Shown: piece after piece, positions 2,823 through 13,240 of the stretch
How the letters are laid out: every line of letters starts with the position of its first letter
Numbering within the stretch: the stretch's first letter is position 1
DNA from: a virus
Reading direction: 5' to 3' (one strand)
DNA length: 13,880 nt
Virus genome (UHGV): UHGV-1775278
Program-made: the position numbers and the translations under genes
Notes under the pieces: generated by a model
Seen by the model: only the letters and a program-made list of their open reading frames with translations
Told to the model about the DNA's origin: nothing
Databases searched by the model: none

Positions 2823-2996
2823 CACCCATTGATAGTAAATAAGCGAAATAATAACAACTGCGTTAGATTTGTAAAACAAGAGAGATACTACTCAAGGCTG
2901 GGCTATATGCAACAGGTAGGATTTGCTTTTAGAGTAAAAAGTGACCTTAATCAACAAGGAGGGTAAATCGCATGGCATTTACCCAACTTGTTATTT

Positions 2997-3257
2997 TTAA
3001 AGGTTTATTTTATCCGGTTCGGATATTTCTGTGATTGTCTTGTCGATTGCGATCAACCACCCTTCATAGGTTAAATCATCAACAAGCTCTACCAGTTTGT
3101 CTTCTGTATGAGGGAAGTATACCCAGCTCCAGCTCGCTGGGTTTTCTGCTTTTCGCAGCGTAAAAACCTTCTTGTAACGGTGAAACTCAAGGACATACCC
3201 CTTCGATATGGAATATTCCTTTAGGTCTTCGACCGTAAACCTACGATTCTTTCGCAT
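2997..3257 (-). CDS. Hypothetical protein (86 aa)
   Basis: ATG start 2 nt after the stop of the 144-aa gene (TAGccATG) with a G-rich stretch upstream. Last gene of the operon that contains the giant gene. No family recognised. Confidence 0.5.
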   Translation of the reverse strand: MRKNRRFTVEDLKEYSISKGYVLEFHRYKKVFTLRKAENPASWSWVYFPHTEDKLVELVDDLTYEGWLIAIDKTITEISEPDKINL

Positions 3258-3259
3258 GG

Positions 3260-3694
3260 CTACCCCATGATTCGATATTTCTCTATTGACTCGTCGTAAC
3301 TTGTGTACACGTATGGCTCTGTATCATCAGCATAAGGTGCGACTTCCAGAGCATGAACGGGATTGTATACCGCGTCATTTTCCAGGCGATCGCTCGAATA
3401 CAGATGCCCAGCCAAAACCGTAAGCGCCGGGCGACTCATTTTGTAGATCTCTGCCACATCACTATCTACAACTTGTCCAAATGATATGTCGCCGCGCTCC
3501 AGCAATATCGTTTTGAGCGCGGGCCACCACGGACCATAAAGGTGATAAAGCTGTGGATTTTTCTTCAGCCTTTCTACCATGCCATCAAGATAAACTGTCA
3601 GGTATTCTTCTTCACTCCTGCCATTGAGTGCCTGCGGCAAGATTTCCTCAAGGTAGGATTCCGTCGGTTTTACAGTGTCAATTAGTGTCGTCAT
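3260..3694 (-). CDS. Hypothetical protein (144 aa), immediately downstream of the giant methyltransferase-helicase gene
   Basis: ATG at 3694 lies 36 nt after the giant ORF stop. Same strand, acidic protein, no family recognised. Confidence 0.6.
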   Translation of the reverse strand: MTTLIDTVKPTESYLEEILPQALNGRSEEEYLTVYLDGMVERLKKNPQLYHLYGPWWPALKTILLERGDISFGQVVDSDVAEIYKMSRPALTVLAGHLYSSDRLENDAVYNPVHALEVAPYADDTEPYVYTSYDESIEKYRIMG

Positions 3695-3701
3695 TCAAAT
3701 T

Positions 3702-3719
3702 CGGCCCCGGTTGGGGCCG
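3702..3719 (-). other. GC-rich hairpin (CGGCCCC ggtt GGGGCCG) between a Shine-Dalgarno sequence and the start codon of the 144-aa gene
   Basis: 7-bp perfect GC stem with 4-nt loop. On the minus strand the order is TAA (giant ORF stop), cagat, AAGGAG, hairpin, aatttga, ATG. Confidence 0.55.
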
Positions 3720-3730
3720 CTCCTTATCTG

Positions 3731-6700
3731 TTAGGCCGCATCGGCGATTATTTTACGCAGTTCATCTACCGAGTAACGCGTAGATACCATCCATGCCGGA
3801 CGGTCAAAGTTCACATCAGCAACCGGGTTTGCTTCAAAATTCCAGAAACGCCCGCCAATCTTCTTAATCGCGTCCTTGGCGTTCCGTATTGTCGAGGAAC
3901 CGGGCTGATCGGCAATGAGATAAACGGCTCCCACATCTTCACTGACACTCCACCAGCGCCCGCGAACACGGGCTTTAGCGCGAATCGGCTTATCATTAAC
4001 CACAATGATATAGTCATCATTCGCCGCTTCATCAGCTCTGGCTTCAGCCACTGCCGCCTGCTCTTCTCTTTTGCTTTCAGCCTGCTCAAGCCTTTCCGCG
4101 ATCTCTGATTCAGTGGCCCCGCCGTTTTTCAGCGATACATAGTCCTGCCACGTTGCCGATTTGAGCGCATCCGGCAACTCATTCACATAGTCGCCGTCTT
4201 TCAACTCACGGGCGCGACGGGTAGCCATTTCTACCAGGCGATTAACAGAAACAGCATCAGCAAAATCGTCCTTACTAATGTGTTTTTCATCAAATGCATT
4301 GATGACAGCCCCCACCTTAATCCACTGCGCTGCTGGCGAATCCAGAGGATTATCGGCCTGAACAATGGCTAATTTCGCTCCATCGACACCATTATTAGCC
4401 AGCTGCTCCAATGCCGACCAGCCATCGGCATCGCTGAGTGATTTATATTGCTCAAACAATGCATCGCGCCAGGCCACCAGCGCAGCTCGTGTTTTCTCAA
4501 TTTTCGCCGTAATTTTCGCGGCCTTCACCTGATTAAACATCCGTTCAATGTCATCAGTGTTGCTAAAGGCTTTCATCCTGCCCTGGAATAAACGGTATGC
4601 CACCACGGTCTTCCAGAAAGATTCCAGCCCTTCTCCGGACGGTTTACGGAACAGGCTAAGAATATCTTCAGAAGTAACTTTATTAAGTGAGCGACTGGAC
4701 AAACCACGCCCTGCCATCCAGTTTTCAAACTCCTGGGAAACATCATCCATCGTGGCCTGTGCCCCCCATGCCTGCATTCCCTGGATGTAATCATATCCAT
4801 ACAATGCCTGGAGGAATCCCTCGCCGTCCACGACATTCAGCGGGTTATCACTGGCTTGTATTTTTGCCACTTCACGCTTCAGCGCCTCATCGTTGCCATC
4901 AGGGTAAATCCACCGCTCAGGCGCTATATCCGATGCTCGCCCGATTTTTTGACCTATTACGCCATCATAAGCCGATGACAGTGCAATCTGACCATCATCG
5001 GTGCGATAAGCCCAGTATTTAATAGCTGAACCACCGCCCCATACTCTACCAGGCTTCCCGGCAGTGACATTCATTACCCCATTGCGAATAGCATCATAGA
5101 ACTGATCGCGCGTAAGTGTTGTTGATAGCTGGTGGCATTGAACACCACGTGCAGCTGTTTCACGCGATTCTGCAACTCCCTCTTCAAAGGTTACCGATTC
5201 AATTATCAGGTTAAAGGGCAAAAATAATGCCGTACCCGGAGAACGAGAGTAACGACTAGCCACATCCAGCCAGGATATGCGGCACGTACACCCGCCCCTT
5301 TCCGCATCAATGGCGGTAACACGAACAATTGCTGTCGTATTGTGATTCTCATCGATGATCGCGCGATAATGGCTGTCCTTGTGCAACAAGATATTTTTCT
5401 CAGTGCGTACATACTCCTGTGGGTTCTGCAATACATCGGCATCAAGCTCCAGAACCCCGGCTTTAATCGCACGTTCCAGATCACCACGGGAACGTTTCAT
5501 AACGGTGTCAGCGTCTTTAGCTCTGGTGATCGCAAAGCGTAGCTCCCGCACACGTTTTCTGTAGTCTCGCAACTGTTCCAGAACATATTTCTGCCCGTTC
5601 CTGTTCGTCCCCGCTTTAATCAGGTCGTCAAGATTGCGCTGGTAATGCTCTACCTGCTCCATCGCGCTTTTCAGTTCTGTCTCCATCATGCCGATATCTT
5701 TCCCGGCAGCATTCGCCGCTTTCAGGTAGTTATCGAGAGCATTATTGGCTTCGCGTAGGGCTTTCAGTTTCAGACGTTCTTCACGCTCTTGCGCCTGACG
5801 ACTCATGATTGCACGGCGTTCTTCCGGATTTGCCGCCAGCATAATGGCGCGTTCATCTGCGTCATCCGCATCACCATTGGCGATCTCTGACATGTCGGAG
5901 GTCATCACCATATTGATCCAGTCCTTCTTACGTTTCAGCGTATCCAGACGGAAGTCGTCGAATGTGCCTTTGCCACAATAGTAGTGAACATTGACCTTTT
6001 CTTGCGGTGAACCTACGCGCGCACCGCGCCCATTTCGTTGGTCGATACTGGCTGGTGTCCAGGGTAGTGTCAGGTGGTGGATATCGGTTGTCCCGATGTG
6101 CAGGTTAATACCTACTTCAGCCTTCTTGTTACAGATTATGATGCGCGTGCGACCTTCGTTATAGTCGGCGGCAATACCTTCCATGCCCTCAAGGCCAGCA
6201 TCATTTTTAGCTGAGAGATAATCCTCATATTGGGCAAGTTTGCTGTAGTAGGTTTCCCATGCACCTTCTTTGTATTCACCGTTTTTATTTGGCGTAGGTT
6301 CAGTAGGCTTATTCACCTTCTTCAGCTTGACGCCGCCAGCCTGGCTAACTGTCGTCGCATTGATAATGCCTATCTCCTGCTCCGGCATTTGCAGTGCACT
6401 GGCAATAATACGGCGCAGCTTCTGGTGCTGGGCTTTTTCATCAATGAAGACGATTTGTTTACCGTTCTTCAGACCTTCACGAAGGTTTTCGATCAGCGCG
6501 GCATACTTCGGCGGGATGGGGTGTGATACCTGCTGCATATCAATACCGGCAGCCGCAATGGCCTTCAGTATTTCAGCTTCCAGTTCAATGCCAGCACGTA
6601 TTTCAACATGCGACGGATGTTCGCTAAAGGTGGTCTTCACTACCTTGCTGGTACGCGTACTGACCAGCCCACCAGCGCCATCTTCTTCGGCCTCGTCTGC

Positions 6701-9700
6701 ATCATCTGCCACTTTACCGCCAGCTACTTTTGGCAGGGCATCAGCAATAGCTTTTACCTTGTCTGCAAGCTCAACGGGGAACTGGAATGTAATCGCACTG
6801 GCATACAGATCAGGATCTATAGCAACCTTATCCATGTCGCGGATGATGGAGAAGATGAAATCATCCGGTTTTTCGTTTGTGATATGCCCGTTTTCATCGA
6901 CCGTCAGCGCATCTTTACTACTTAACTCCTGTGCACGCTTACGAAGTTCTTCGTAAATGGCCTCTTGCTCTCCTGTCATCGGGATCTGCAAGGTATTCTC
7001 GACAATATCAGGGATTTTTACCGTCGCCCCGACGTCCGCAGCAGTCTTCAGAGTAGTCCAGCGATGGAAAATACCACGCAGACCATCCAGGTTCTGGAAG
7101 CCCACCAGCCCCTGCTTCTCTTCCACCTCACCGGAAATTTTCTGAACCTGAACTGTGGCTGTTTTACCGAACACGCGAACGAAATCATCCGGCGTAACAA
7201 TACCCATGCGCATCCACTCTTCCTGCGGAATGACAGTAGACAGCATGTTGAAAGCATCAATCGGGCTGTTCACCAGCGGTGTTGCCGTCAGCATAACCAC
7301 ACCACGCCCGTTGTTGCGTTTCATCATGTACGCAGCTTTTACAGCCATATCACGAGCCATTTTGGATACTGCCGGGTTAGGCAAATATGCCAGTTGCCCC
7401 GCTTCGCGCCCGGCGCTAAAGGAGTTGCGGTAGTTATGCCCTTCGTCGGCAATTACGCTATCGAAGTTCATATCCTCAAAGTACGGGATATTCTGCTTCT
7501 TCGTTGTACCGGTATTTGCGGCCTGGTCCTTAATCTTGTTCTTCTTCTGCGCGTCACGGTGTTTGCCAGATGCCAGGTCAAGACGCCCCATTTCCACAGC
7601 ATTAAAGACCGCTTGCTGTGAGTTTTCCTCAATGGTTTCTTCTCGTAGCGGGATAGACGCGAATTGCTCTTTTGTCATGATGACCGTTCGCCAATTTGAC
7701 GACGGGATCATGTTCATGCGCTGAACGATAACGGCGCTGGCGGACTCTTTCACAACATTTCTGGTAAGAGCCTGCCCGTTACTGTCGAGGCGTGGTTCGC
7801 CATTTTCATCAAGCACCGGCGCGGTCAGAATATTTCCGCTGTCATCACGAACTTCATCCAAACCGATAAACATCATATTAGCGAAGGCATCAGCACTGTA
7901 GAAACTCTGTGCCTCGTGATACCAGTTCTGATAAACCGCCTTCGGAACAACAATACACGTGCGTTTAGTGCGACCTGTTTCGAAGTTATACGCCTCAAGC
8001 GCAAGCGCGGTCGTGGTTTTACCCAGCCCGGTGCCAAATCCCATGATGCCGCGCCCATCTTCTGATAAGCGACGAACTTCTTCATTCTGATAAGTCAGAG
8101 GAATGCGCTTCCCACTAATCCCCTCCAGGCCAAGCGGTGCGTCAGAATGCGTAAACGGGATGAAGCCATTAAATGCGTCGTTATAGTCGCGGGCTATCTG
8201 ATCAGCCTGCGGGTGAGTGCGTAACCAGTCGTTGAAGCTAATTTCCAATTGAGCAATCTTATCCAGGTACTCGTTAGCGTTCTGCCCACGCGGTTTAATG
8301 CCGTTCAGGTAGTTTTCTAACTGGTTCAGGAAGCCGTCTTTATTGTTGGCCTTCTTGAACTCATTCCCGTTTTTGCCGTTTACGGTTCGTAGTTGATAGC
8401 CAGTAAATACCCCGTCCTTACCTTCGTAATCGTCCGGAGATACCAGAATGCCGTCCTCAACCTTAAGGTCGGGTTCTGTATACTTAAACTCGTCATAGCC
8501 CTGCTCTGCCAGGAACTCTTTTATCAAGCGGCGATCCAGCCAGCGGGCGTTCAGATTAACGGTGACTTTATTTAGTGGCGTGAAAATGCGTTTCTCTTCG
8601 ATTTTCGCCAACTGACGCTCAAAGTTCGCTTTCTGCTCACCTGTTGACGCATCACGCCAGCCCACCAGCAATGCTGTTTTGGTTGCAATATCGCCGCTGG
8701 TGGCGCGGTCCATCGGCAGCAGGCAGCCATACCCATCAATAGCGATATCATCAAATTTCGCCAGGTATTCCAGAGCAGCATCGTCGTCTCCTGGCAGTTC
8801 GCCAGCAAACGCCTCACGAAAATCGTCCAGTGTGATTGGATTAAGTGCCACGTCACTGAAAAGGTGGGTTACAACTTGTTCCGGGCGTGTAAAATCAATA
8901 CCGGCAGCACCATCCGTTACATCAAGTCGTCCAGCAAGGAGGTCAGAAGCAGAGCCGTCCTGTTTCACGTTGCCAGTGAAAGTCATCCAGTTTTTAGCGC
9001 CAGCTTCAGCAATCCCATTCAGCTTAATCGCGTGCGGCGGACCATACTTCGCAATTTCGGCTTCCGCCAGGCGCGCGGCATCAGCAAGTTCATCATCAAC
9101 ATTTTCCCCCAGATTACGCTTATCAAGCGCCTTGTTGATCAACTGCCCTATCAGTGCGCCGCGCATAACGCGTTCTCTGTCTTTTTCTCTCTGCTTGCCA
9201 GCAAAGCGAATCATTGCCGCTACTTCATCACTGATAACCGATGGATAGTCGGACGCGATCGCCGATATCTGGTCCCATGACAACGCCAGAATGCCATTTG
9301 TTGACTGAAACGCGATCTGCAGATCGCCAAACGTCGAAACACCATATCGGCTTACATCAAGCGCGGAGGATTTGGTTGTCGTGTCCTTGACCCATTTCAG
9401 GCCATCAAACTCATGCCAGATGCCGCCTACAAGGCGTTTATCGCCCACTTTCGCGCCCTGCCATGCCTGAGTAGTTACGCCGAGCAAATCCCAATTAATG
9501 CGGCTTTCAAAGCGGCGCGATAGAGCGGTTTTCATCGACTCATTGGATACACGACCGTCCTTTTTCACCACCAGGGTATTGCGGAAGCTGGTACGCTCCA
9601 TATCGCCGTAAACAAATCGCTTCCCTTCGGTTGTAAACCATTTTCCTTTGAGGAAGGTATCCCAAAGGACGTTTGCCGATTTGAGCGTCGAATCATCCGT

Positions 9701-10687
9701 ATCGGGGATCATCTCCAGAAAGGCTTCCGGGTGTTTACGCAATACCCATACGTCCACCACGGTATCTGTACCTGATTCACTGAACGTACCGGAAGGCATA
9801 CGATGCGCGCCCAAAAATTCCGCTTTACGGCTGACTTTATCGCGCAATTTTTTGTATTTCGTACCATCAGTCATGCCATTCGGCACCACCAATACGATAA
9901 GCCCACCAGGTTTAACCTTGTCGATCGTGCGCAGCACAAAGTAATTGCCAACGTTCTTCTCGTTTGCATATGCCGGATCAAGCCCTGCAACGCCGGAACG
10001 GCCTTCGCCAAACGGTACGTTACCAACAGCGTGATCATACATTGCGTCTTTCGCCGCCAGAGCCTCGAACGCCCCAATGTTCACATCGTCTTCCGGGTGC
10101 AACAGCTGGTTGATTCGACCGGAGATCGGAGACAGCTCGGCGCTGGTCATTATCATTCCCTGCCGTTTTGTCTCCTGGAAAATACCCGTGCCAGCTGATG
10201 GTTCCAGTACGTGACCGCCATCAATACCGTAGTCAGCAAACAGCTCCCATATACCTTCAGCCATAAACTGTGGTGTGTAGTATTCGTATTGACTGCCTTC
10301 GCCGTCAGTAAGGCCGCCTTCACCTGTATACCCTGCAAGAATCTGACGCTGTTCGTCAGTTAATTTCGCCCCATCGAATCCGGGCGGAAGGGAATTAAGA
10401 AGATCTACTGCGGCGTTGTTTGCTGCCCGCCGTGTTTTTTGAATGCTGACACCATCGACTTTCTTAACGCCAAAGGTCGCAACAGATCGCGGTTTATGCA
10501 ACCGACTAACAATTTCAATCAGCGCCCCAATGCTGGTGGCCTGGCTAATTGAATCAATTATTTTGTCCAAAGGAAGCCCCCTCAAAACCGTTAAATCCGC
10601 CTGTAGCGGTACGGTTTGAAAGGGTATGGAGTGTGTTAATTTGGAAGAATAAGAGCGGAAAAGGTCAGGCGATACGAACGAACTCAC
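3731..10687 (-). CDS. Giant fused N6-adenine DNA methyltransferase / SNF2-like helicase (2318 aa), DarB-like anti-restriction candidate
   Basis: Single 6.96-kb ORF. Codons verified by hand: methyltransferase motif I LEPSAGTG (10184-10207) and motif IV NVPFG (10007-10021); helicase Walker A GFGTGLGKTT (8012-8041), motif II DEGH (7436-7447), LTATP motif and motif VI QRNGRGAR (about 6017-6040). About 760 C-terminal residues have no recognised domain. GTG start with weak Shine-Dalgarno. Confidence 0.9.
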   Translation of the reverse strand: MSSFVSPDLFRSYSSKLTHSIPFQTVPLQADLTVLRGLPLDKIIDSISQATSIGALIEIVSRLHKPRSVATFGVKKVDGVSIQKTRRAANNAAVDLLNSLPPGFDGAKLTDEQRQILAGYTGEGGLTDGEGSQYEYYTPQFMAEGIWELFADYGIDGGHVLEPSAGTGIFQETKRQGMIMTSAELSPISGRINQLLHPEDDVNIGAFEALAAKDAMYDHAVGNVPFGEGRSGVAGLDPAYANEKNVGNYFVLRTIDKVKPGGLIVLVVPNGMTDGTKYKKLRDKVSRKAEFLGAHRMPSGTFSESGTDTVVDVWVLRKHPEAFLEMIPDTDDSTLKSANVLWDTFLKGKWFTTEGKRFVYGDMERTSFRNTLVVKKDGRVSNESMKTALSRRFESRINWDLLGVTTQAWQGAKVGDKRLVGGIWHEFDGLKWVKDTTTKSSALDVSRYGVSTFGDLQIAFQSTNGILALSWDQISAIASDYPSVISDEVAAMIRFAGKQREKDRERVMRGALIGQLINKALDKRNLGENVDDELADAARLAEAEIAKYGPPHAIKLNGIAEAGAKNWMTFTGNVKQDGSASDLLAGRLDVTDGAAGIDFTRPEQVVTHLFSDVALNPITLDDFREAFAGELPGDDDAALEYLAKFDDIAIDGYGCLLPMDRATSGDIATKTALLVGWRDASTGEQKANFERQLAKIEEKRIFTPLNKVTVNLNARWLDRRLIKEFLAEQGYDEFKYTEPDLKVEDGILVSPDDYEGKDGVFTGYQLRTVNGKNGNEFKKANNKDGFLNQLENYLNGIKPRGQNANEYLDKIAQLEISFNDWLRTHPQADQIARDYNDAFNGFIPFTHSDAPLGLEGISGKRIPLTYQNEEVRRLSEDGRGIMGFGTGLGKTTTALALEAYNFETGRTKRTCIVVPKAVYQNWYHEAQSFYSADAFANMMFIGLDEVRDDSGNILTAPVLDENGEPRLDSNGQALTRNVVKESASAVIVQRMNMIPSSNWRTVIMTKEQFASIPLREETIEENSQQAVFNAVEMGRLDLASGKHRDAQKKNKIKDQAANTGTTKKQNIPYFEDMNFDSVIADEGHNYRNSFSAGREAGQLAYLPNPAVSKMARDMAVKAAYMMKRNNGRGVVMLTATPLVNSPIDAFNMLSTVIPQEEWMRMGIVTPDDFVRVFGKTATVQVQKISGEVEEKQGLVGFQNLDGLRGIFHRWTTLKTAADVGATVKIPDIVENTLQIPMTGEQEAIYEELRKRAQELSSKDALTVDENGHITNEKPDDFIFSIIRDMDKVAIDPDLYASAITFQFPVELADKVKAIADALPKVAGGKVADDADEAEEDGAGGLVSTRTSKVVKTTFSEHPSHVEIRAGIELEAEILKAIAAAGIDMQQVSHPIPPKYAALIENLREGLKNGKQIVFIDEKAQHQKLRRIIASALQMPEQEIGIINATTVSQAGGVKLKKVNKPTEPTPNKNGEYKEGAWETYYSKLAQYEDYLSAKNDAGLEGMEGIAADYNEGRTRIIICNKKAEVGINLHIGTTDIHHLTLPWTPASIDQRNGRGARVGSPQEKVNVHYYCGKGTFDDFRLDTLKRKKDWINMVMTSDMSEIANGDADDADERAIMLAANPEERRAIMSRQAQEREERLKLKALREANNALDNYLKAANAAGKDIGMMETELKSAMEQVEHYQRNLDDLIKAGTNRNGQKYVLEQLRDYRKRVRELRFAITRAKDADTVMKRSRGDLERAIKAGVLELDADVLQNPQEYVRTEKNILLHKDSHYRAIIDENHNTTAIVRVTAIDAERGGCTCRISWLDVASRYSRSPGTALFLPFNLIIESVTFEEGVAESRETAARGVQCHQLSTTLTRDQFYDAIRNGVMNVTAGKPGRVWGGGSAIKYWAYRTDDGQIALSSAYDGVIGQKIGRASDIAPERWIYPDGNDEALKREVAKIQASDNPLNVVDGEGFLQALYGYDYIQGMQAWGAQATMDDVSQEFENWMAGRGLSSRSLNKVTSEDILSLFRKPSGEGLESFWKTVVAYRLFQGRMKAFSNTDDIERMFNQVKAAKITAKIEKTRAALVAWRDALFEQYKSLSDADGWSALEQLANNGVDGAKLAIVQADNPLDSPAAQWIKVGAVINAFDEKHISKDDFADAVSVNRLVEMATRRARELKDGDYVNELPDALKSATWQDYVSLKNGGATESEIAERLEQAESKREEQAAVAEARADEAANDDYIIVVNDKPIRAKARVRGRWWSVSEDVGAVYLIADQPGSSTIRNAKDAIKKIGGRFWNFEANPVADVNFDRPAWMVSTRYSVDELRKIIADAA

Positions 10688-11009
10688 CGTCTATTGCGTG
10701 TTCACCCCCGGCATCATCTCGCATAACAGCACACTGACCTGGAAGGCCATAACGAACAACCATACAACGAACACCATCGCCACAACCGCTCTGAGTCCTG
10801 TTTTGTCTCCTCTCATACGATTTTACCCGTTCAAGTGTTCGCCTTGTTGATTCGAGATAATACTGTTTGTCGATTGCATCCGTACTATGCAGCAAGTAAG
10901 CCACCCCGGACACATCAAACGGAGGCGATCCAATCTCCATTGTCACCCACTCACGGTTATCCGGTTCAAAGTAGCTGAGTATCTCTTTTTTTCTTCTTGT
11001 CAGTCTCAT
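10665..11009 (-). CDS. Hypothetical protein (114 aa) whose 3' end overlaps the giant gene start by 23 nt
   Basis: ATG at 11009 with GAGG 8 nt upstream. Sits directly downstream of the palindromic control region. The C-terminal third is low complexity, so the true extent is uncertain. Confidence 0.5.
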   Translation of the reverse strand: MRLTRRKKEILSYFEPDNREWVTMEIGSPPFDVSGVAYLLHSTDAIDKQYYLESTRRTLERVKSYERRQNRTQSGCGDGVRCMVVRYGLPGQCAVMRDDAGGEHAIDGEFVRIA

Positions 11010-11020
11010 GTTTGCAACCT

Positions 11021-11052
11021 CTTATTGTGGGATAGCTCTATCCTACAATAAG
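11021..11052. promoter_or_regulatory. 32-bp near-perfect palindrome (CTTATTGTGGGATAG ct CTATCCTACAATAAG), candidate operator
   Basis: 15-bp arms at 11021-11035 and 11038-11052 with one mismatch. Lies 12 bp upstream of the 114-aa gene start, in the divergent region between the giant-gene operon and the lysin gene. Confidence 0.6.
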
Positions 11053-11067
11053 AAACGTAACAACATT

Positions 11068-11083
11068 TATGATTTAAATCATA
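11068..11083. promoter_or_regulatory. 16-bp perfect palindrome TATGATTTAAATCATA, candidate operator
   Basis: Exact self-complementary 16-mer in the same divergent intergenic region, 16 bp from the 32-bp palindrome. Confidence 0.5.
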
Positions 11084-11243
11084 TGGTTAATTAATGAGAA
11101 AGCTCAAACATTCAGTATACGGTTAACACTCAACATGCCACGGACAAGGAAGGCTTAGGGGCGTACCGGGGTAAGAAAATTGCTGCCATGAAAATCACAT
11201 ACTCCCCATAGTTTATGTTCATTTGTTAATCAGAGGGGTAGTT

Positions 11244-12666: not shown

Positions 12667-13088
12667 CAGTGTGCCTCCGCAATTCCGGGATTGGTAATAT
12701 TGCGATACCAAGGATTAGTGTTTGGTTGTGATGAAGTAGAGAAACGGCCAGTCAGGACGCCATGTTGATCAGGGATCAGAGAACGGGCTTCTTTTTCAGT
12801 TGCGGCAATTGCGAAGTGATCACAGTGTTTTTGCAGGGAGTGGAAACGCCAGATAAATTCCGGGCGCGAGCAAGGATTGGCATTAACCATAGTTACGGCC
12901 TCATTCGTAGGTTTAACAACCTGCGCCCCGCTGCTAAACGGGTGGCAGGACGTGACGGGGTTAGCAGACTGGCACGAATGAAACCAGCAGGCCGAAGCCT
13001 CCCCATCACGCCCCACCATAATTCGGGCGTAACGTGGTTTTACGGACACAAAAATACCGCAATATCGGATATCTGCGGTTGTCCGCAT
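12666..13088 (-). CDS. Hypothetical Cys/His-rich protein (140 aa), uncertain
   Basis: Open frame between element copy 5 and the Rha gene, ending in an ATGA overlap with the Rha start. Six Cys and several His (CWFHSC, SCHPF, HCDHF). No convincing Shine-Dalgarno at either candidate ATG, so it could instead be a long 5' leader. Confidence 0.35.
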   Translation of the reverse strand: MRTTADIRYCGIFVSVKPRYARIMVGRDGEASACWFHSCQSANPVTSCHPFSSGAQVVKPTNEAVTMVNANPCSRPEFIWRFHSLQKHCDHFAIAATEKEARSLIPDQHGVLTGRFSTSSQPNTNPWYRNITNPGIAEAH

Positions 13089-13240
13089 TCGTATTCAGGC
13101 TGCTAAACCCGGTCGCAGAATTTGCTACGACGACATGAATATAAGCCTGAAAACATGGAAGATCAACTAAAAATTTCAGCAATGGATGACTTCAGTCGAT
13201 GATGCAGATCATACATTCCGATTTAGAAACAGCAAATTAA

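Follow-up and report, generated by a model that had tools for sequence, protein, structure and literature searches.

The closest described counterpart of the locus analyzed here is the darB-ulx-lxc region of phage P1, in which the giant anti-restriction gene darB is followed after 33 nt by ulx, and ulx overlaps lxc (82 aa) by 4 nt. Ulx of P1 is one of six Dar proteins, is present in virions, and is listed as aiding the localization of DarB (literature on P1). Lxc (Bof) raises the affinity of the repressor C1 for its operator via a ternary complex and counteracts the anti-repressor Coi (PMC8546580). In D6-like prophages, Lxc was stated to be "not detected", and its absence was taken to point to another mechanism of lysogeny (PMC6799933). 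The stretch under study, the virus genome UHGV-1775278 (13,880 nucleotides, referred to as the window), is 91.8% identical to Escherichia phage D6 across 96% of the window length and 99.8% identical to the Escherichia coli plasmid p92_MLI108-1, and these matches identify it as a D6-like, P1-family phage-plasmid of E. coli.

A previous reading of the window from its letters alone (the sequence-only reading) had regarded three small genes of 114, 144, and 86 aa as translationally coupled to a giant darB-like gene, and as candidate partners of DarB or else cargo. The four open reading frames (ORFs) were confirmed where that reading had placed them, all on the minus strand. We are fairly confident that the region as a whole is best explained as a darB-ulx-lxc module, upstream of which an unrelated cargo gene was inserted. 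The three small genes are not one set of partners; they comprise ulx, a very probable diverged lxc, and a sporadically occurring putative regulator gene unrelated to DarB. Most of this picture is known biology, and the new points are modest, namely, the re-annotation of D6 orf13/phrog_6844 and a hairpin in the darB-ulx junction. The features of the module are as follows:

3731..10570, minus strand: darB-like giant gene, 2279 aa, TTG start; N6-adenine methyltransferase region and SNF2/helicase region
3695..3730, minus strand: darB-ulx junction; AAGGAG at 3725..3720, then a 7-bp GC hairpin, 7 nt, and the ulx ATG
3719..3713 (5′ arm), 3712..3709 (loop), and 3708..3702 (3′ arm), minus strand: parts of the junction hairpin, directly behind AAGGAG
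3260..3694, minus strand: ulx homologue, 144 aa; accessory protein to DarB in the Dar anti-restriction system; match to phrog_1629 ("Ulx-like anti-restriction") at E 4.9e-59
2997..3257, minus strand: 86-aa gene (D6 orf13, phrog_6844), starting 2 nt after the ulx stop; very likely a diverged homologue of P1 Lxc/Bof
2961..2984, minus strand: terminator-like hairpin, 12 nt after the stop of the 86-aa gene, from the terminator scan

In the D6 record, orf15 ("similar to P1 darB") corresponds to the giant gene, orf14 ("similar to P1 ulx") to the 144-aa gene, and orf13 ("hypothetical") to the 86-aa gene; nothing there corresponds to the 114-aa ORF. The giant protein resembles P1 DarB in its size (~2,280 aa), in its methyltransferase and SNF2-helicase regions (Pfam matches N6_Mtase, SNF2-rel_dom, and Helicase_C), in its N-terminal and overall homology (phrog_1685 and DarB-like phrogs match it), and in the presence of ulx downstream. 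The two loci differ upstream: prt adjoins darB in P1, whereas here darB comes after a cargo slot of variable content and a divergent gene for a peptidoglycan hydrolase. How DarB works is a matter that the present results leave unchanged.

With 48% identity to P1 Ulx over the full length (BLASTP, E 3e-46), the 144-aa protein is identified as Ulx, and the gene is already annotated as ulx-like in D6 (orf14). The sequence-only reading had recognized no family for it, although phrog_1629 and the D6 annotation place it in one; its proposal of the protein as a DarB partner agrees with established knowledge. The gap between darB and ulx is 36 nt, compared with 33 nt in P1. A genome-wide scan for Ulx relatives yielded 15 loci (from Pantoea, Enterobacter, Citrobacter, Xenorhabdus, Serratia, Erwinia, and Escherichia), and in all but one of them (14/15), a long DarB-like ORF ends 30–42 nt upstream of ulx. 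The gene shares with P1 ulx the position 30–42 nt downstream of darB and the same Shine–Dalgarno–hairpin element ahead of it. Nothing substantive separates the two; packaging of Ulx in the virion and the need for it in DarB-dependent protection are literature findings on P1.

The gene downstream of ulx and P1 Lxc

The 86-aa gene occupies the slot that lxc has in P1. Its close family is tiny (8 clusters at 90% identity), and it comes after ulx in every context retrieved, and 125 PLSDB records carry the gene. Across diverse P1-like loci, the place directly behind ulx is likewise taken by a third gene, which encodes 79–95 aa and whose start lies −8 to +10 nt from the stop of ulx; the loci come from Escherichia, Salmonella, Cronobacter, Pantoea, Enterobacter, Citrobacter, Serratia, Erwinia, and Xenorhabdus. 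Among the more distant elements with such a gene are Pantoea and Xenorhabdus plasmids, Cronobacter phage JK004, and the 15 genome loci.

The relationship to Lxc emerged at the level of profiles. A search of 1.84 billion representatives added ~12 distant small relatives to the profile of the 86-aa protein, and the first enriched profile aligned with the Lxc group at 88.5% probability (hhalign). When the syntenic third genes were added, the probability rose to 95.9% (E 5.2e-9, score 46.9), with 72 collinear columns (of 82 residues); identity over the aligned columns was ~17%. In a control with shuffled columns, the highest score in 200 shuffles was 20.8, compared with the observed 46.9. Two intermediates (L035 and L042) matched both hidden Markov models (HMMs), P1 Lxc itself matched the D6-type HMM at E 7e-6, and an all-against-all BLAST graph of the third genes, P1 Lxc included, consisted of a single component. 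One further profile match (P0152, 2146 aa) was dismissed as spurious, being a eukaryotic Sushi-repeat protein. From these alignments, the 86-aa protein is very likely homologous to P1 Lxc.

Several observations weigh against this assignment. A direct BLASTP comparison of the 86-aa protein with P1 Lxc gave no match, and a shuffle test of their global alignment was not significant (z 1.5). With a shallow profile of nine sequences, hhalign returned a probability of only 0.35% for Lxc, and the signal appeared only once the profile had been enriched with intermediate or distant relatives. The AlphaFold2 (AF2) model of the 86-aa protein (α-β-β-β-α; predicted local distance difference test [pLDDT] score 76) gave no significant structural match in BFVD or PDB. 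Moreover, no sigma-70-like promoter was found inside ulx here, where the P1 record annotates three lxc promoters, which bears on how the 86-aa gene would be expressed in lysogens.

The family databases do not connect the two proteins: neither the 86-aa protein nor Lxc has a match in Pfam, NCBIfam, or PADLOC, and PHROGs keeps their groups (phrog_6844 and phrog_2160, respectively) apart, both as of unknown function. The likeness to P1 Lxc comprises the slot right after ulx, the size (86 versus 82 aa), the coupling to the ulx stop, full-length homology between profiles, and a C1-type repressor in the D6-like element type; on the other side stand the undetectable pairwise similarity and the separate PHROG families, and co-repressor activity of the 86-aa protein is inferred from its homology. 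As to the repressor, D6 orf1 is annotated "similar to P1 C1" (c1 lies outside the present window), and the domain PF27008 Phage_P7_repressor_C1 was found in the sister locus L022. In a tblastn search at E 1e-5, D6 C1 (345 aa, L045 227..1264) matched neither P1 nor any further phage record. Since D6 C1 itself is thus beyond tblastn detection in comparison with P1, co-divergence of C1 and Lxc as a pair is plausible. D6-like elements yielded no second candidate for Lxc. Taken together, the 86-aa protein is most likely the C1 co-repressor Lxc/Bof of the D6 lineage; it would act on the equally diverged D6-type C1 and not as a partner of DarB. The gene is closely linked to ulx, with which it is probably coupled in translation; a role as partner of DarB in capsid loading, as proposed in the sequence-only reading, is not supported, in view of the homology with Lxc.

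If D6 orf13/phrog_6844 is indeed a diverged Lxc, the C1–Lxc module would be conserved over P1-like phage-plasmids of many genera of the Enterobacterales, and a family of "unknown function" would gain a testable role.

The darB-ulx junction and expression of the module

To characterize the 36 nt between darB and ulx, a set of 19 distinct junction sequences from P1-like loci was assembled (including the window, L003 1937..1969, and L019–L042), and the stems were extracted and tabulated with RNAfold, as MAFFT misaligned these hairpins. In each of the 19 junctions, a Shine–Dalgarno sequence is followed by a hairpin and the ATG of ulx, the stem being GC-rich and 6–8 bp long with a loop of 3–5 nt. 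The GGAG lies 0–3 nt ahead of the stem (in three loci, it overlaps the stem by one base), and the distance from the stem to the ATG is 5–10 nt throughout (19/19). The six innermost stem positions are paired in all sequences, and CG-to-GC swaps occur at all six of them. Folding energies were −13 to −18 kcal/mol, and z-scores against shuffled sequence were −2.4 to −5.0.

Split ribosome-binding sites are known from genes 38 and 25 of phage T4, in which a hairpin draws the Shine–Dalgarno sequence near the AUG. The darB-ulx junction resembles these sites in its succession of Shine–Dalgarno sequence, stable hairpin, short spacer, and AUG, and in an effective spacing of ~4–11 nt, to which the distance between Shine–Dalgarno sequence and ATG would shrink once the hairpin is folded. 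It differs from them in that there is no sequence relationship, and in that the function here is inferred from conservation and covariation. By analogy, we tentatively favor the junction hairpin as a bridge within a split ribosome-binding site of ulx: the folded hairpin would bring the Shine–Dalgarno sequence to a normal distance from the ATG, and ulx would be translated from the darB message. The position of the GGAG and the constrained distance of 5–10 nt between stem and ATG, both common to all 19 junctions, argue for a role in translation initiation. This compact arrangement, backed by covariation, makes a candidate case of translation initiation assisted by RNA structure in a phage that has been studied extensively. 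Coupling of ulx to darB, either by melting of the hairpin or by bridging of the ribosome-binding site, is possible.

Further downstream, the junction between ulx and the 86-aa gene reads TAG-CC-ATG. The gaps that the sequence-only reading had given for both junctions (36 nt, 3695..3730, and 2 nt, 3258..3259) are correct. In homologous loci, the two genes overlap by 4 nt or 8 nt or are separated by 1 to 10 nt, and termination–reinitiation at the ulx stop is the probable mode of translation of the 86-aa gene. The terminator-like hairpin behind it (2961..2984) recurs in D6, L020, and L022, although its sequence has changed there, and probably ends the darB-ulx-lxc-like transcription unit (2984..2961 in the direction of transcription). 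Past this hairpin, and ahead of a pmgM/VRR-NUC-like gene, a strong sigma-70-like promoter was observed at 2848..2875 (minus strand; TTTACA, 16 nt, TG-TATTAT; 10/12 matches); its place behind the hairpin fits a new transcription unit beginning there.

Two features of the module allow for a different explanation. The main alternative to a bridged ribosome-binding site is that the junction hairpin stabilizes the mRNA 3′ end, marks a site of processing, or attenuates weakly and so sets the ratio of DarB to Ulx. Such a role would suit a GC-rich, stable hairpin situated just past a very long gene, and in the window, a short T-run follows the hairpin; most loci, on the other hand, have no T-tract after it, and we consider this alternative rather doubtful, if by no means negligible. 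As to the 86-aa protein, it might descend from Lxc and yet have a Dar-related or other late function instead of C1 co-repression. Tight coupling to ulx in all lineages, the lack of a detected promoter inside ulx here, and the very low identity to Lxc (~17% of aligned columns) would be in line with this. The conserved slot, size, and homology to Lxc, together with a C1-type repressor in D6 and the lack of any alternative Lxc candidate in D6-like elements, argue against it, as does the paper on the P1 virion proteome, where Ulx and DarB are listed and the word "Lxc" never appears; a late function in place of co-repression is, therefore, unlikely. More unlikely still is a further reading, which starts from the physical and presumably translational tie of the Lxc-family gene to the late darB-ulx operon in all P1-like phage-plasmids examined: the co-repressor might also be made late together with the injected Dar proteins, and maybe be delivered or act with them, so that the previous lytic cycle would preset how strongly C1 represses at the next infection, with the junction element setting the ratio of DarB, Ulx, and Lxc. 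If true, late synthesis of Lxc with the Dar proteins would link anti-restriction to the lysis–lysogeny decision. Co-repression of C1 by the 86-aa protein and a bridging function of the hairpin are the explanations that we prefer.

The start of darB and the cargo gene upstream

The region upstream of darB contains the following features:

10571..10664, minus strand: non-coding spacer from the stop of the 114-aa gene to the start of darB, 94 nt; darB Shine–Dalgarno sequence GAGGGGG at 10577..10583
10665..11009, minus strand: 114-aa ORF; allele, with a 9-residue in-frame deletion, of a ~123-aa predicted winged-helix family
11026..11047, no strand assigned: palindrome TGTAGGATA-N4-TATCCCACA, 16 nt upstream of the start codon of the 114-aa ORF and abutting its Shine–Dalgarno sequence; putative operator

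At its longest, the giant ORF extends over 3731..10687, the most upstream start codon being GTG 10687, ahead of which no Shine–Dalgarno sequence is found. The TTG at 10570..10568 is preceded by the Shine–Dalgarno sequence GAGGGGG, 6 nt upstream. In D6, the longest possible darB ORF begins at the equivalent of TTG 10570, residue 1 of P1 DarB aligns to residue 40 of the long ORF, phrog_1685 spans residues 41–2318 of it, and the calls of PGAP and of the contig both give a darB product of 2279 aa. As all of these point to the same codon, darB is assigned the start TTG 10570; upstream of this codon, the homology of the window to D6 extends for only ~75 nt. Consequently, the 23-nt overlap with the 114-aa ORF that the sequence-only reading had reported is an artifact of the longest ORF, and the two genes are separated by 94 nt. 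The terminator scan of this spacer gave no terminator-like site, and no match to a P1 late-promoter-like motif modelled on LPpro was found in the window. A darB homologue of a Xenorhabdus bovienii megaplasmid (L027 665..8498) is split by an IS630 transposase, and the ulx and Lxc-like genes downstream of it are intact.

Between the divergent CHAP/TIGR02594 hydrolase gene and darB (10571..11222), the content varies among elements. The slot is empty in D6 (L001) and contains the predicted winged-helix gene here; in L019, it contains a HigB-like toxin and a helix-turn-helix protein (the PADLOC matches are the A and B components of PD-Lambda-2), and in L022–L024, a 165-aa protein of phrog_14789 with a weakly Cor-like N-terminus. 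Judged by this variation, the slot upstream of darB is a hotspot for cargo.

The 114-aa ORF belongs to a family of 478 clusters, typically of 123–124 aa, which is spread over the Enterobacterales. Comparison with plasmid pPSS-10_3 revealed a deletion of 27 nt between CTTGA repeats (junction 10836/10835); the deleted segment, LDAMVRDGL, is nearly invariant in the family and lies in the predicted recognition helix, and the protein encoded here may, therefore, be inactive. For a full-length homologue of 123 aa, the AF2 model is a winged helix (pLDDT 81; order H-H-H-H-β-β). A Foldseek search of PDB with this model gave generic winged-helix proteins, such as RTP, DnaD-N, and Fur/PerR, but at weak scores (E 0.025 at best), a point against the assignment. 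Pfam, NCBIfam, and PADLOC gave no match for the 114/123-aa protein, and no PHROG match was significant.

The gene is absent from D6, and as an insert, it was found in four PLSDB plasmids and, in part, in two more, compared with the 125 records carrying the 86-aa gene. The contexts of three chromosomal homologue clusters were read: one adjoins fis, one adjoins guaB-xseA, and one belongs to a prophage region of Yersinia. All three clusters lie at the margins of prophage- or satellite-like islands, and in none of them does a DarB-like gene lie beside the homologue. Downstream of dusB-fis (L006–L011), the homologues stand at the fis-proximal border of small islands. These islands have terminase, portal, capsid-protease, and primase-like genes and look like capsid-forming phage satellites; two different types of them share an identical 124-aa protein.

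The palindrome TGTAGGATA-N4-TATCCCACA is present upstream of homologues in four unrelated contexts (the plasmid and three chromosomal ones), with copies at ~5905–5960 in L006, at ~4955–4990 in L012, and at ~4955–4990 in L016; the fis-adjacent islands have two copies. The window contains no second full copy, and half-site matches elsewhere are at chance level. Regulation of darB by the 114-aa protein was considered, and again the window holds no second copy of the palindrome. Recurrence of the palindrome together with the gene suggests that the latter is a self-contained accessory module, probably autoregulated via the putative operator. It resembles autoregulated winged-helix morons of prophages and satellites in its predicted fold, in the palindrome over its own ribosome-binding-site/promoter region, and in being a stand-alone gene at island edges; it differs from them in that the protein has no match in the family libraries named above and in that the copy in the window is deleted in the recognition helix. 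"Cargo", one of the labels offered by the sequence-only reading, is a fair one; for the immunity or anti-defense role that had been suggested with it, there is no evidence. Together, the variable slot and the module of winged-helix gene and palindrome add modestly to what has been catalogued as phage-plasmid cargo.

With a probability only somewhat short of even, the ORF is a dead remnant that was inactivated by the deletion and persists by hitch-hiking: what was removed is a nearly invariant part of the predicted recognition helix, and the deletion arose by microhomology slippage. Against this, the frame, the start codon, the Shine–Dalgarno sequence, and the palindrome are all intact, and the deletion allele is present on ~75 contigs (cluster table) and in 156 blocks of the contig index. 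It is hardly credible that all three small proteins are dedicated, co-translated partners of DarB in capsid loading or anti-restriction. In its favor, P1 Ulx does have such a role, the 86-aa gene invariably neighbors ulx and darB, and no terminator lies between the 114-aa gene and darB; however, the 86-aa protein is homologous to a transcriptional co-repressor, and the 114-aa gene, 94 nt away from darB, is missing from D6 and most D6-like plasmids. The coupling of the 114-aa gene to darB and its partnership with DarB, as proposed in the sequence-only reading, are not supported for the same reasons, given the spacer and the variable content of the slot, and the proposed check of co-occurrence turned out negative in the three chromosomal clusters mentioned above. 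The preferred explanation is, accordingly, a darB-ulx-lxc module next to an independent cargo gene.

The immI region

At the other end of the window, a 140-aa ORF and another ORF of 114 aa (not the neighbor of darB) had been listed over a stretch in which they are probably not genes. The stretch corresponds to immI, and the icd-like and Rha-type anti-repressor genes lie downstream of it; on its minus strand, the C4 antisense RNA (12938..13023; Rfam, 71.9 bits) and its a1/b1 target element (13092..13144; 52.2 bits) were detected.

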